From a virus (Duplodnaviria; Caudoviricetes), in the IMG/VR virus record IMGVR_UViG_3300046786_000150, positions 1 to 36,899 of that record: 36,899 nucleotides of DNA. The stretch is one strand, 5' to 3'. The translations under genes and the position numbers were made by a program. The first letter of the stretch is position 1, and every line of letters starts with the position of its first letter. This document shows, piece after piece, positions 28 through 7,665 of this stretch. The notes below the pieces were generated by a model, which saw only the letters and a program-made list of their open reading frames with translations, ran no database searches and was not told the origin of the DNA.

Positions 28-648
28 ATGAATAAACTATTAACATTGTTACTTGCTTCATTAGCAGTAACCACACAAGCACAGACAAACAACTGGGTTA
101 GTTCAACAAACACCCCATGGAAGAATAGTTCAGGTCAATGCTGGCGTAATTCGGCTTGGACACCTAGTACCGCACATCCTGATTGTGATGGTGCATTGAA
201 AGCAGAAACACCTGCACCAAGAGTATCAGCTACATTCCAAGCTCCAGTAGTACAACCAGCACCTGTTGTTGTGAAACCCGAACCTAAGCCAGTTGTACAT
301 AAAATGACTTATGCGGCTGACACATTTTTTGATTTTGATAAGAGTGTCATCAAGCCCGAAGGTAAAGTTAAGTTAGATGAACTTCTAGAGAAAATGAAGA
401 ACATCAATTTAGAAGTTATCATTGCAGTTGGTCATACTGATTTCATTGGCAATGATGCATACAATATGAAGTTGGGTATGCGCCGTGCTCAAGCAGTCAA
501 GGCATACCTAGTAATTAAAGGTATCGAAAGCAAGCGTGTATTCACCGACAGTAAAGGAGAGCGTCAACCTATCGCTGACAACTCATTGCCTTCAGGTCGT
601 GCAAAGAATCGCCGTGTAGAGATTGAAGTAGTCGGCACTACTAAATAA
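28..648 (+). CDS. ompA: OmpA family outer-membrane protein (betaproteobacterial type)
   Basis: Signal peptide; WKNSSGQCWR...CDG N-terminal motif; Pro-rich linker; C-terminal OmpA peptidoglycan-binding domain (FDFDKS, VGHTD, N..L...RA..V..YL, GRAKNRRVEIEV); SD AAGGA. Confidence 0.93.
   Translation: MNKLLTLLLASLAVTTQAQTNNWVSSTNTPWKNSSGQCWRNSAWTPSTAHPDCDGALKAETPAPRVSATFQAPVVQPAPVVVKPEPKPVVHKMTYAADTFFDFDKSVIKPEGKVKLDELLEKMKNINLEVIIAVGHTDFIGNDAYNMKLGMRRAQAVKAYLVIKGIESKRVFTDSKGERQPIADNSLPSGRAKNRRVEIEVVGTTK
641..647 (+). promoter_or_regulatory. T4-late-like promoter (CTAAATA) for the tmRNA gene
   Basis: NTAAATA motif overlapping the ompA stop; predicted +1 near 653, just ahead of the tmRNA acceptor piece. 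Confidence 0.5.
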
Positions 649-652
649 GTTT

Positions 653-945
653 TATTGCTGTATGAAGCAAAGAGAAAAGTGTTCTGGACGCGGGTTCGAC
701 TCCCGCCTGGTCCACCAGAAAGCATACTCCGTGGGGGCTACGAACCACATTAAACAAATAAGTAGTATGAGTATGCTTCCTAATGGGCCAGTCATGGTTT
801 CGACAGGGCAAAGAGTAACAGAGTGGACAGCAGGGTAGGCGATGACCCTAAATCAAGCAAAACAAAATAGACGCAAACGATGAAGTTTACGCATTAGCAG
901 CCTGATAAGGCCGCTTGGGGCAAGACAGGCCTCGCAACAGAACCT
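653..945 (+). ncRNA. ssrA: Circularly permuted (two-piece) tmRNA; tag (A)ANDEVYALAA
   Basis: The T-arm GCGGG-TTCGACT-CCCGC plus CTGGTCC-A-CCA (690-717) precedes the 5' strand GGGCCAG (785-791). Together they form a 7-bp acceptor stem with a G3-U70 wobble. Tag ORF GCA AAC GAT GAA GTT TAC GCA TTA GCA GCC TGA TAA at 873-908. Outer ends are approximate. Confidence 0.92.
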
Positions 946-946
946 C

Positions 947-974
947 AGAAAGGGCATTCGTGCCCTTTTCTTTT
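947..974 (+). terminator. Intrinsic terminator after tmRNA
   Basis: AAGGGCA-TTCG-TGCCCTT hairpin followed by a T-rich run. Confidence 0.85.
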
Positions 975-1001
975 GACTACGAATGTTAGGTAATATATAA
1001 T
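973..1001 (+). promoter_or_regulatory. sigma70 promoter, probably giving a leaderless mRNA
   Basis: TTGACT-17 nt-TATAAT; ATG 5 nt after the -10 box; no SD. Confidence 0.7.
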
Positions 1002-2956: not shown

Positions 2957-3502
2957 ATGAAAACAATCGGCGATAAAATCACAAGTTTTGCAATTACAGG
3001 TGTCAAGCCCGGCGCACTAACACCAGAAGGTGCTTTTGAAACTATTACAGATAAGAGTTTCGAAGGCAAGTGGAAGGTAATCGTTTACTATCCAAAAGAC
3101 TTCACATTCGTATGTCCTACAGAAATCGTAGCATACGATAAGTTGAATGGTGACTTTAGTGATCGTGATGCAGTTCTATTGATCGGCTCTACTGATAATG
3201 AGTTCTGTAAACTAGCCTGGCGTAACGCACACGAAGACCTAAAGAAAACAAATTCTTGGTCATTCGCAGACGTAGCACGTGATGACAATTCACTAGCAGA
3301 ACAACTAGGTATCTTCTATAAGCCAGCTGGCGCGGCACTACGTGCAACCTTCATTGTTGATCCTGACAATGTTATTCAACACGTTACTGTAAACAACTTG
3401 GATGTTGGTCGTAGTCCAGATGAAACATTGCGTATTCTTGACGCATTGCAAACTGGCGAACTATGCCCATGCTCACGTCCAATCGGCGGTGAGACACTAT
3501 AA
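2957..3502 (+). CDS. ahpC: 2-Cys peroxiredoxin (alkyl hydroperoxide reductase C)
   Basis: YPKDFTFVCPTE peroxidatic motif, RATFIVDP, GRS.DE.LR..DALQ, ELCP resolving Cys. Confidence 0.95.
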   Translation: MKTIGDKITSFAITGVKPGALTPEGAFETITDKSFEGKWKVIVYYPKDFTFVCPTEIVAYDKLNGDFSDRDAVLLIGSTDNEFCKLAWRNAHEDLKKTNSWSFADVARDDNSLAEQLGIFYKPAGAALRATFIVDPDNVIQHVTVNNLDVGRSPDETLRILDALQTGELCPCSRPIGGETL

Positions 3503-4152
3503 TGTTAGAAACTATTTGCGACACATTAGTTGAAGCATATAGACGCAACTGGATTACCAGTCGTGATGGCAATGTAAGTATTCGTCATCACGACAGGGAC
3601 CATTTCTATATTACACCTAGTGGCGTGCGTAAACAAACTCTACAGCCCGATCAGTTTAAAAAGATACAGATTGTTAAATGGGATACTGGTATTGATAACG
3701 TACTGGCTTATAACTGGAAAGAGGCATCATATACTGATATTAGTGCTAATCTAAAGCCCAGTGGCGAAATTCCATTGCACTTCGGATTACAAAAGAACAT
3801 GGGACAACATAGTGATGATGTAAGAGTAGTAGTACACTTGCATCCTACGTATTGTGTGGCTGCTATGCATGCGGGCATAGATTTAAGTACTATCGTTAAC
3901 GATTTTCCAGAACTCAGTCGCTACACTAAAGTAGCACCTAACGTAGGAGATGTTCCACCAATTAGTCAAGAGCTTGCTGACCGATGCCATGAAAACTTAC
4001 AATTAGACAACTATGGTAACATCAGTTACGATATTGTAGGTATCAAAGGACATGGTGTTGTAGCTATTGATACTAGTCCATGGCGTGCGTTTGAGCACAT
4101 TGAACGTTTAGAACATATCTGTCAAATCGTATTAGCATCAGGGAAATATTAA
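3502..4152 (+). CDS. Class II aldolase/adducin family metalloenzyme
   Basis: GNVSIR, ITPSG, PSGE.PLH, VVHLHP, GHGVVA motifs. Confidence 0.88.
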   Translation: MLETICDTLVEAYRRNWITSRDGNVSIRHHDRDHFYITPSGVRKQTLQPDQFKKIQIVKWDTGIDNVLAYNWKEASYTDISANLKPSGEIPLHFGLQKNMGQHSDDVRVVVHLHPTYCVAAMHAGIDLSTIVNDFPELSRYTKVAPNVGDVPPISQELADRCHENLQLDNYGNISYDIVGIKGHGVVAIDTSPWRAFEHIERLEHICQIVLASGKY

Positions 4153-5456: not shown

Positions 5457-5975
5457 ATGACAGCATGGGTAGACGCACTTAAAGAATCTAGTATTCCTGA
5501 TTACGCAAAGGATACTAAACTAAACATTGACGCAGTAGTTAAGCGTAGTTCTCTTCCAATAGAAGAAGCAGAGGGTGTAGCATTAGCGGCAGCATTTGCA
5601 ACTGGCAATAGCAAGTTGTGGACTTGGATGGAAAGTCAGATTACTAACAAGACTGAAACACAAGCCGCATTGACTGCAGGAGCATTGATGGCACAAAACA
5701 ATGTATGGTATCCATATGTTGAAATGGCTGACGATGAAAATCTAAAAGGATTACCCGCTCAACTACGTATGAATGCTATCAGCACATCGGGTGGCACAAC
5801 CAAAGAACGCTTTGAGGCATATTCATTAGCCGCAAGCATTGTTGGTAAGTGTCACTTCTGTGTTAAGGCGCACTACGAAGGCTTGAAGAAGATGGGCTAT
5901 ACTGTAGAACAACTACGTGATATCGGTCGCATCGCAAGTGTAATCAATTCAGTGTCAAAAGTAGTAGCAAGTTAA
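5457..5975 (+). CDS. ahpD: Alkylhydroperoxidase AhpD (CMD family)
   Basis: IPDYAKD.KLN, AGALMAQNNVWY, LRMN, SIVGKCHFCVKAH (CxxC). Confidence 0.92.
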   Translation: MTAWVDALKESSIPDYAKDTKLNIDAVVKRSSLPIEEAEGVALAAAFATGNSKLWTWMESQITNKTETQAALTAGALMAQNNVWYPYVEMADDENLKGLPAQLRMNAISTSGGTTKERFEAYSLAASIVGKCHFCVKAHYEGLKKMGYTVEQLRDIGRIASVINSVSKVVAS

Positions 5976-5982
5976 TTGCCCA

Positions 5983-6025
5983 ATAAGTTTGATTATGCTA
6001 AATATTTCTGTATAATCAAACTTAT
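5983..6025. promoter_or_regulatory. 14-bp perfect inverted repeat enclosing a late-type promoter and overlapping a sigma70-like promoter, upstream of the tRNA
   Basis: ATAAGTTTGATTAT (5983-5996) / ATAATCAAACTTAT (6012-6025); CTAAATA 5998-6004; TTGATT..TATAAT (5989-6016). Confidence 0.65.
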
Positions 6026-6030
6026 ACATT

Positions 6031-6106
6031 GCGTCCGTAGCTAAGTGGAACAGCGTGAGCCTCTAAAACTCTGGATGCGTGGGTTCGATTCCCACCGGAC
6101 GCACCA
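6031..6106 (+). tRNA. tRNA with CUA anticodon (amber suppressor), Arg-like body
   Basis: Acceptor GCGTCCG/CGGACGC-A-CCA; D arm GCT..GGA..AGC; T arm GTGGG-TTCGATT-CCCAC. Anticodon stem GAG/CTC places the loop CT-CTA-AA (CTA at 6063-6065, U33 present). The stem has U-U and C-A mismatches. Confidence 0.85.
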
Positions 6107-6127
6107 ATTAACTTAAAGGAAACTAAA

Positions 6128-6700
6128 ATGGCATAGATTGAATTTGCGTGTAAGGAAGTTGTGTTTCACTTCAACAAGAAACACTTGGAAGATCAGACCA
6201 TTCCCATGTGGGTCTTAAAATTTCATGGCGAAACGTATTATGTGAATCATGTGGAATGCAATATTTCATGGTCTACAAAAGAGACACCTGACAACTCACA
6301 TACTAAGGGCAGTATCAAAGTCAAAGAGGTTCTATTAACCATTGATGACGATAACAATGCTAACTTAACCCAACTCACTATATTTGATAAGATTCGTTTG
6401 CGTAATCAAAAATTAGGCATTACTAGAATCATGTTCAGACCACATAGTGATATTCACAAAGCATTACAAAGGAATGAATTTAAACACAGTCCGTTTAAGA
6501 ATATCTTAGGACGATGTGCTACTGGGTTTGTTATCTGTGATTTGCTTGATAAGGCTGAGCTAACATTCGCAACACTGAAATATGACGATTTTAGAGTAGT
6601 TCAGCCCAACGAATCATATTATAAGGAATATGATGACGTTAAAGGTGACCATATCAAAGTTGATTATAGTCATCCGGATACACCCTTTGAATATAGTTGA
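6128..6700 (+). CDS. Hypothetical protein with in-frame TAG at codon 3 (read-through product about 190 aa; alternative GTG start at 6161)
   Basis: SD AAAGGA 7 nt before ATG 6128; ATG GCA TAG ATT GAA TTT GCG TGT AAG GAA GTT GTG is in frame with the 179-aa ORF 6161-6700. Confidence 0.75.
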
Positions 6701-6816: not shown

Positions 6817-7665
6817 ATGATGTACAATCAAAAGCTGGTGGCCAGCCTAAAAGCCAATGGTAAAATCCTTCGTGAATTCAAGGATACTGTCTACTGCCCA
6901 TTCGGAGCAGAATATTCAATACTACTCAAAAACCTAAATACTGTTCGTGCAGTCGTTCATGTTTACATTGACGGCGAGAATATGATACCTGACGGTCTTG
7001 TATTAAACGCAGGGCAAGAAGTTGACCTAGAACGTAGTATTAAGAACGGTAATCTAAATGAAGGCAATCGCTTCAAGTTCATTGAAAGAACTGGTGCTGT
7101 CGAACAACACCGTGGTGTCAAACTAGAAGATGGATTGATTCGTATTGAGTATCAATTTGAAATTCCCCGCCCTATTATTAATATTACTAATGCTTATGAC
7201 CATTTTAGATACACTGGCATTAAAGATGCTTATAATACTAATCCATCCTATAATATCAATGGTATGTTGCGTAGTGTTGACTGGAGCAAGAATGGAGAAG
7301 TAACTGCACAGGCAGCAAGTGTCGCAGTCAATAACTACTGTGCCCAAAACAACATCAGTGCTAGTATCGGTGAAATACATGATGGTATGGCAACAATGGA
7401 TTCGTATGTACCAAAGAACGAAACAGGTATTACTGTACCTGGTTCTAGAAGCGAACAGAAGTTTCAAACAACTACAATGGGTGCATTAGATCCTCAGAAA
7501 CATTCAATCGTATTGAAGATTCTAGGTGAGACTCCTGACAACGAGCCTGTTCGTAAGCCTGTCACTGTAAAGCACAAACCTAAATGTGTCACGTGCGGTA
7601 AACAGAACAAAGCAAACGCCAAGTTCTGTACTGAATGCGGAACAGCATTAGAAATTTTTGCTTAA
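6817..7665 (+). CDS. Hypothetical protein with C-terminal zinc ribbon
   Basis: 282 aa; C-terminal CVTCG..N...AKFCTECG; SD AAGGA; CTAAATA at 6737-6743. Confidence 0.8.
   Translation: MMYNQKLVASLKANGKILREFKDTVYCPFGAEYSILLKNLNTVRAVVHVYIDGENMIPDGLVLNAGQEVDLERSIKNGNLNEGNRFKFIERTGAVEQHRGVKLEDGLIRIEYQFEIPRPIINITNAYDHFRYTGIKDAYNTNPSYNINGMLRSVDWSKNGEVTAQAASVAVNNYCAQNNISASIGEIHDGMATMDSYVPKNETGITVPGSRSEQKFQTTTMGALDPQKHSIVLKILGETPDNEPVRKPVTVKHKPKCVTCGKQNKANAKFCTECGTALEIFA

Follow-up and report, generated by a model that had tools for sequence, protein, structure and literature searches.

The best explanation of the arrangement described here is that one stop codon, read by a dedicated phage tRNA, acts as a gate on a translation-rescue module, a reading to which we give a probability of about 0.7 on comparative sequence evidence. 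The window, by which we mean the whole stretch of viral DNA analysed (36,899 nucleotides), carries an amber-suppressor tRNA followed by a gene, gene X, with an in-frame TAG close to its start. Full-length X would be made only when the phage CUA tRNA, which a host synthetase (most likely LysRS) would charge, wins against the host release factor at codon 3. Given that the stop is also found in leaders and in a linker, it is the passage of the ribosome that would count, and not the residue inserted. The gated unit (a Pth2-like, or peptidyl-tRNA hydrolase-like, protein, the X beta domain and a coiled coil) would recycle peptidyl-tRNA or rescue ribosomes, and the gate would hold the level of this module low and make it depend on how much charged suppressor is available; each failed pass would cost a peptide of just 2-4 residues. 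Read-through of the stop by the phage tRNA, against the release factor, is highly probable; that it controls a module, with X as a part, for recycling peptidyl-tRNA or for rescue is probable.

The stop codon of gene X and its suppressor tRNA

The features of the locus are collected in Table 1. The type of the tmRNA, together with window genes for a porin, OmpA, AhpC/AhpD and TerC, suggests a large phage of Betaproteobacteria. In five of six long records the tmRNA lies about 1-5.5 kb from gene X.

Table 1. Positions of the tRNA, the gated gene and associated elements in the window.
Feature	Position	Strand	Remarks
Permuted tmRNA, betaproteobacterial type	609..996	+	tag ANDEVYALAA; ARAGORN, Rfam
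Sigma-70-like promoter TTGATT-16-TATAAT	5989..6016	+	10/12 consensus matches; ends 14 nt 5' of the tRNA
Amber-suppressor tRNA	6031-6106	+	single ARAGORN call, anticodon CTA; CCA end encoded
Anticodon CTA, loop CU-CUA-AA	6063..6065	+	same loop in 48/68 distinct family tRNAs
Shine-Dalgarno (SD) AAAGGA of gene X	6115-6120	+	relatives show an equivalent SD before the ATG
Gene X, 190 codons from the ATG through the TAG	6128..6700	+	no Pfam or PHROG family
Gate: in-frame TAG, codon 3 of gene X	6134-6136	+	frame runs to TGA 6698-6700
N-terminal beta domain, residues 4-83	6137..6376	+	first strand encoded between TAG and GTG
GTG called as start; reads as an internal Val codon	6161..6163	+	gene callers' choice
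C-terminal ACT/RRM-like (ferredoxin-like) domain	6416..6646	+	conserved G-x-C motif; structural comparison of the predicted model

The first-pass annotation, made from the letters alone, had read the anticodon as CTA, and ARAGORN and the Rfam tRNA model (55.2 bits over the same positions) agree on both the call and the register. This tRNA has G1:C72, C2:G71 and A73, carries A20, and has a weak anticodon stem in which 27:43 and 31:39 are mismatched. The arrangement SD-ATG-GCA-TAG, in frame and with the ATG 21 nt past the CCA end, was also borne out. The sigma-70-like site would co-transcribe the tRNA and gene X, judging from its consensus match; such sites are frequent by chance (6 seen versus 3.5 expected). 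No terminator-like site was found on the + strand between the tRNA and gene X. Downstream of X, a zinc-ribbon gene occupies 6817-7665; in another locus, L134, it sits between the CUA tRNA and a Pth2-like gene.

Homologues of gene X numbered 1451 at E<=0.001. Viral contigs were scanned three times, with 47, 80 and 80 overlapping loci as the result, and in the pooled set 188 of 205 sequences passed a motif filter, leaving 105 distinct X proteins, the window included, with 43-100% identity to that of the window (median 60%). Of the 17 sequences that the filter removed, one (L021) lacks its 5' end, and TAG was present in every one of the ten that were inspected. A start-proximal TAG is kept in 100 of the 105 distinct proteins. 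It is codon 3 in 70 of them, codon 4 in 10, codon 5 in 15, codon 6 in one and codon 10 in two; two more were scored at codon 20 since the script picked an earlier ATG, and actually read M-K-TAG. In one further gene (L047) the TAG is codon 88, inside a linker, and four genes (L134, L202, L212 and L248) have none. By set, and with overlapping contigs, TAG was present in 45 of 46 loci with upstream DNA and in 79 of 80.

At the gate site of the 100, neither TAA, TGA nor a sense codon was ever found, whereas adjacent codons vary; the following codon is Ile in 88 of 98, and otherwise Val, Thr, Lys or Asn. The first-pass annotation had asked whether TAG recurs near the N-terminus of homologues, as it does, and had held that sense codons at the site in relatives, with no link to the tRNA, would speak against the gate; among the distinct proteins, those free of the TAG are limited to the four named above. 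Conservation is thus far beyond chance, and by this comparison the stop is under selection. An assembly error, another doubt raised then, is dispelled by the TAG of the 45 relatives and by a public contig (run X1) identical to the window over 5900-6669, which possibly comes from the window's own source sample; a second run, X2, is probably the same data set and may be that source. RNA run X16 contained only relatives less than 90% alike, as contigs, and no sign of expression.

A CUA tRNA, whose co-occurrence the first-pass annotation had wished to see checked, was found for 87 of the 105 X proteins, and for 67 of the 76 whose upstream DNA spans at least 5 kb. It lies upstream of X in 86 of the 87, at distances from 91 nt to 8.2 kb. 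Direct adjacency of tRNA and gene, which that annotation had put at the centre of the module, holds in the window but not in the family, where only 19 of 87 tRNAs start within 113 nt. For the remaining nine of the 76, no CUA tRNA was seen in the flank covered; absence is not established in these, because that of one relative, G001, lies 8.5 kb downstream. In G002 and G005 the CUA tRNA is placed away from the main tRNA arrays and close to X and the tmRNA. These arrays (L069, L098) also hold tRNA-Leu genes (CAA, GAG, TAA) of 77-79 nt that have no usual long variable arm. A doubtful UUA tRNA call beside L305 was left out.

The 68 distinct suppressors of X loci share G1:C72 (68/68) and a YU-CUA-AM loop (68/68), and most have C2:G71 (64) and A73 (58), with G73 in the other 10; the D arm varies. 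Over a wider set, G1:C72 is present in 121 of 128 suppressors versus 287 of 542 other phage tRNAs, and A73 in 109 of the 128. According to the accessible text of PMC9976931, Lys is what amber suppressors put in when they have U35 and A73, a G73 moves them partly to Gln, and the 1-72 pair of Gln inserters was unstable. With U35, A73 and a stable G1:C72, host LysRS is the likely charger and Lys the likely inserted residue. UCA suppressors, having no U35, cannot be Lys under the same rule. The stable G1:C72 and A73 argue against a reading of TAG as Gln. Database proteins do show Q at the gate site, most likely from code-15 gene calls, because every DNA locus read has TAG.

Resemblance to tRNA-Arg, proposed at first from A20 and the acceptor stem, did not survive the comparison as a property of the family: just 30 of the 138 suppressors collected over all loci have A20, which speaks against an Arg identity for the family, and Lys fits better. 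Nearest-isotype scoring of the 138 gave Met 33, Thr 23, Gly 21, Val 12, Arg 10 and Lys 7 (a leave-one-out control scored 88/120). This points to no single ancestor, and the assignment to Lys therefore rests on identity elements and not on ancestry. In some suppressors (L386 995-1068, L269, L321, L374) C replaces U33, giving the loop CC-CUA-AA.

The gate elsewhere in the module, and in cultured phages

In two of the four loci with a TAG-less X gene, L134 and L212, the upstream Pth2-like gene itself has SD-ATG-x-TAG, with TAG as codon 3. The Pth2-like gene of L134 stops 1 nt before X, and that of L212 is followed by a coiled-coil gene and then by X. For the remaining loci, L202 and L248/L249, the flanks covered showed no substitute gate. 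The predicted coiled-coil gene of L212 (9269-9532) encodes 87 aa; many proteins, gp254 of Atu_ph07 among them, have a similar segment joined to the X beta domain. A gene of about 70 aa, often overlapping the end of X, follows X in L212 (10049-10279) and in some 20 other loci; it is absent in the window.

Scans for Pth2-like genes examined 129 loci and gave 102 distinct genes. Seventy are gated, by TAG in 67, by TGA in two and by TAA in one, the latter on a short contig; two are ambiguous and 30 have no stop of their own. The TAG of the 67 is codon 2-7, with a loose SD match in 59, and a suppressor was called in the locus for 37, many contigs being short. In both TGA-gated genes the TGA is codon 4, with a UCA tRNA upstream at a distance of 148 and 293 nt. 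Stop codon and suppressor anticodon correspond, TAG with CUA and TGA with UCA, and on these pairs the two evidently co-vary.

A third position of the gate was found in leaders. In seven of eight examined Pth2-like/X loci with a CUA tRNA and no TAG in the gene (L282, L357, L364, L365, L370, L371 and L374 being the seven), an M-x-TAG...PP-stop leader lies about 100 nt upstream. A Pro-Pro-stop end may stall ribosomes once they have read through. L264 and L295 have a CUA tRNA nearby, and no gate was identified in them. In L293/L257 (about 3160-3510) the Pth2-like gene has two in-frame TAGs, at codon 3 and internally, and in L295 it has the internal one only. The first-pass annotation had listed several purposes for the gate; its movement between X, the Pth2-like gene and a leader narrows these toward control of the rescue module, with the inserted residue unimportant.

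Against the Pfam PTH2 family (PF01981, cutoff 23 bits), Atu_ph07 gp256 (73.9) and XacN1 ORF364 (25.3) score above the cutoff, and the Pth2-like proteins of L134 (19.6) and L212 (15.8) below it. From these sub-cutoff scores, the short Pth2-like family may not be an active hydrolase. One search pattern found no member of it in GTDB genomes. In XacN1 ORF364 and Xoo-sp13 gp327 (L389 964-1803, L393 967-1809) the Pth2-like domain is fused to an uncharacterised N-terminal domain, which resembles phrog_14850 by way of a neighbour in L258, where a phrog_14850 gene follows the Pth2-like gene.

The X beta domain is found by itself, joined to a coiled coil or joined to PTH2; one PTH2 fusion, P0191, scores 32 bits against the Pfam cutoff of 23. 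Gene X itself has no PF01981 score, only relatives fused to the X domain having one. Neither the window nor most X-type loci have a Pth2-like gene nearby, and a single-protein search, run with no positive control, turned up no such gene in any of 10 long X-type records, of which 6 are at least 90% complete. The case for a rescue role of X would therefore come from other phages, through their fusions and operons, and for the window itself the tie of X to rescue is indirect.

No family was found for gene X in Pfam, PHROG or NCBIfam, no solved relative was found by sequence, and a Foldseek search of the PDB gave nothing at E<=0.001. BFVD yielded one uncharacterised phage homologue plus weaker phage hits. 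The structure was predicted with a pLDDT of 88.5 for the whole protein and 97.3 for the beta domain. For the C-terminal domain the best match has Z 5.3 with an rmsd of 3.2 over 74 aligned residues, ACT being tied with RRM and EF-G-like domains; a match at this level indicates a common arrangement only, and any function would be putative. For the beta domain the closest structures (Z 3.9 or lower) are partly OB folds and partly ADP-ribosyltransferase cores, and no fold was assigned. Tail tube/Hcp-like matches in the ESM Atlas (0.84) fell below the 0.9 mark and were rejected.

Among cultured phages, the Pth2-like protein has matches in 35 records and the X domain in 4. Eleven were inspected, and nine have the gate: fHe-Yen9-04, Arash, ME3, RHph_I1_18, XacN1, Xoo-sp13, RsoM2USA, Phosso and Atu_ph07. 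RHph_I1_18 has an unannotated X domain, with TAG as codon 6, directly before a CUA tRNA. Phosso has TAG at codon 4 and two CUA tRNAs, and Atu_ph07 has TGA at codon 7 of a PTH2 gene and a UCA tRNA; both share the order PTH2, small gene, coiled coil-X. The CUA tRNA of Arash (L385 4307-4381) is annotated as tRNA-Phe, and its Pth2-like gene as a fragment. The Pth2-like genes of RaK2 and Hallingskeid have no stop, and a pattern search of RaK2 brought no confirmed suppressor.

Three of these genomes were published with a suppressor tRNA. In the accessible text of the XacN1 paper (PMC5852040), from which the XacN1 tRNAs were taken, no target of the CUA suppressors is identified, and a test of read-through past 18 amber stops gave none. 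The accessible parts of the Atu_ph07 (PMC6102473) and RsoM2USA (PMC8504454) papers name no target of the UCA and the CUA suppressor, respectively. All three phages have the matching stop at codon 3-7, either ahead of the start given in the annotation or in a gene that the annotation lacks.

Competing readings of the stop codon

The gate could in addition be a sensor, an extension that we consider less likely than not. The suppressor would be a weak LysRS substrate, charged well only when the cognate tRNA-Lys is sequestered as peptidyl-tRNA or destroyed, or when release factor is scarce. tRNAs compete for a synthetase, and pth mutants suffer starvation for tRNA-Lys. Read-through would then rise when rescue is needed, as in the autoregulation of prfB or arfA, and the gated genes do include PTH2 members. 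The weak anticodon stem is kept as well, pair 31:39 being Watson-Crick in just 9 of 68 suppressors, and the control of arfA by trans-translation, described in the accessible text of PMC8012679, is a precedent. But a build-up of peptidyl-tRNA would trap the suppressor too, which gives the opposite sign, and the opal versions would require another synthetase and RF2. A wider form, in which jumbo phages across many hosts would keep the suppressor purely as a sensor molecule, is similarly doubtful. If it were true, the charging of this weak, borrowed substrate of a host synthetase would report tRNA sequestration or destruction, or release-factor shortage, and the suppressor would turn on a peptidyl-tRNA rescue module by way of one stop codon. 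The phages would then possess a natural feedback switch built on a tRNA, which would also serve as a counter-defence where the host blocks translation, and gene X would be a new rescue factor, of a fold that had no match here.

Gating of the module, with or without sensing, has to be set against a neutral origin, in which a harmless TAG arose after the suppressor and each now keeps the other with no regulatory benefit. Variation in the position of the TAG and in the next residue would fit this, as would the relatives that have no stop. TAG is, however, one substitution away from several sense codons, and yet it is kept in nearly all X proteins, down to 43% identity; moreover, the same module shows the stop again on a gene that is not homologous and on a leader, whereas other genes lack it. 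We regard a neutral origin as improbable.

The first-pass annotation had also held that the recoding is local to one gene, with no change of the genetic code, and this has stood. By a crude ORF caller, none of the window's 38 long ORFs ends in TAG; in the relatives G001 to G005 the counts are 15 of 291, 15 of 184, 3 of 140, 27 of 155 and 18 of 157, respectively. TAG is the rarest stop, and the counts for the window and G003 could suggest a remnant or early stage of genome-wide amber recoding; Borges et al. (10.1101/2021.08.26.457843, accessible text) propose that gain of a suppressor precedes recoding. This is very improbable here, as TAG ends ordinary ORFs in the four other relatives and no other conserved internal TAG was found between the six records among the all-against-all matches listed. 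A scan for SD-ATG-TAG followed by a long frame gave 24 hits, with X in all six records, and 17 of the hits resemble shadow frames or ordinary gene junctions. One hit, a radical SAM gene of G002 (ATG-TCA-TAG), was considered as a second gate and rejected, its TAG not being conserved in three homologues. From these comparisons the five relatives are not recoded and the gate is local. Such a gate may be an evolutionary source of recoding, which would not explain the gate itself.

That the protein begins at the GTG, or restarts past a mini-ORF with the tRNA unrelated, is scarcely credible and largely refuted already. Gene callers choose this GTG, and an AAGGA lies 4 nt upstream of it in the window. 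Val is the residue at this place in 100 of 100 genes, but the codon is GTG in just 53, and in 40 of 100 neither ATG, GTG nor TTG occurs between the TAG and the first motif. An SD-like site precedes an internal start in 24 of 100, window included, so that some truncated product is possible. The segment that a GTG start would skip, singled out beforehand as the place to look for conservation (IEFACKEVV), proved conserved, with Cys at -5 in 97 of 100 and Asp/Glu in 99 of 100, and forms the first core strand of the predicted beta domain. The four TAG-less X genes translate this strand from an ATG, and the co-variation of stop and anticodon also stands against an unrelated tRNA. A restart at ATT would not serve the family as a whole, since the codon after the TAG is I in most members and V, T, K or N in others. 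On these grounds the upstream ATG is taken as the true start of gene X.

Least probable of all is a pyrrolysine-like residue needed by the protein: ARAGORN labels the tRNA 'Pyl' from its anticodon and the loop is CU-CUA-AA, but where tRNA-Pyl has a 6-bp anticodon stem, a 3-nt variable loop and G73, the suppressors have an ordinary tRNA shape with a 5-position anticodon stem, a variable region of 4-6 nt and A73 in most, and the site precedes the folded domain at variable spacing, shifts to a linker or leader, and can be TGA.

Relation to known systems and meaning

We found no description of such a gate in the published literature covered, which lay largely outside the subscription journals. Several known systems share part of its logic. 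In the recoded phages of code 15 and code 4 (Borges et al., accessible text), the phage's own suppressor likewise passes in-frame stops, and post-transcriptional control has been proposed; there, many late and lysis genes are recoded, against one stop in one gene or operon here. Unlike in those phages, TAG ends ordinary genes here, and the residue is probably not Gln. The orphan suppressors of XacN1 and RsoM2USA (CUA) and of Atu_ph07 (UCA) are the same tRNAs as those described here.

In Streptomyces, the bldA tRNA-Leu(UUA) gates genes that contain TTA. As in our case, a single tRNA switches expression in trans via one rare codon, often near the gene start; bldA, however, reads a sense codon in many genes, whereas the tRNA here is phage-encoded, has one target, and would face a release factor at a stop. 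Synthesis of prfB involves a frameshift at UGA. With prfB and arfA the present gate would share the principle that a quality-control factor is made only when termination or rescue fails at a built-in site, but those systems have no dedicated tRNA and their feedback is proven, while here feedback is merely proposed. The pyrrolysine system, with tRNA-Pyl and PylRS, has the CUA anticodon and in-frame UAG in few genes in common with ours, and differs from it in the canonical shape of the tRNA here and in a site that has no structural part and can be TGA. PTH2 is present in jumbo phages, and a service in ribosome rescue after tRNA cleavage has been proposed for it (Iyer et al., PMC7824862, accessible text); the word 'suppressor' does not occur in the main text of that paper as available, and gene X is not a PTH2 homologue.

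For the three phage genomes whose papers left a suppressor tRNA without target, each gains a specific matching target that annotation had truncated or missed, as far as the accessible texts go, and the question becomes testable in cultured phages whose hosts are harmless. An uncharacterised domain with more than 1,400 homologues would be tied to translation rescue. Stop-codon read-through would have a use apart from recoding, with one tRNA, one codon and one module, the stop and the anticodon changing together. Such a gate would offer a reason why phages with the standard code keep suppressor tRNAs, a step proposed to precede recoding.
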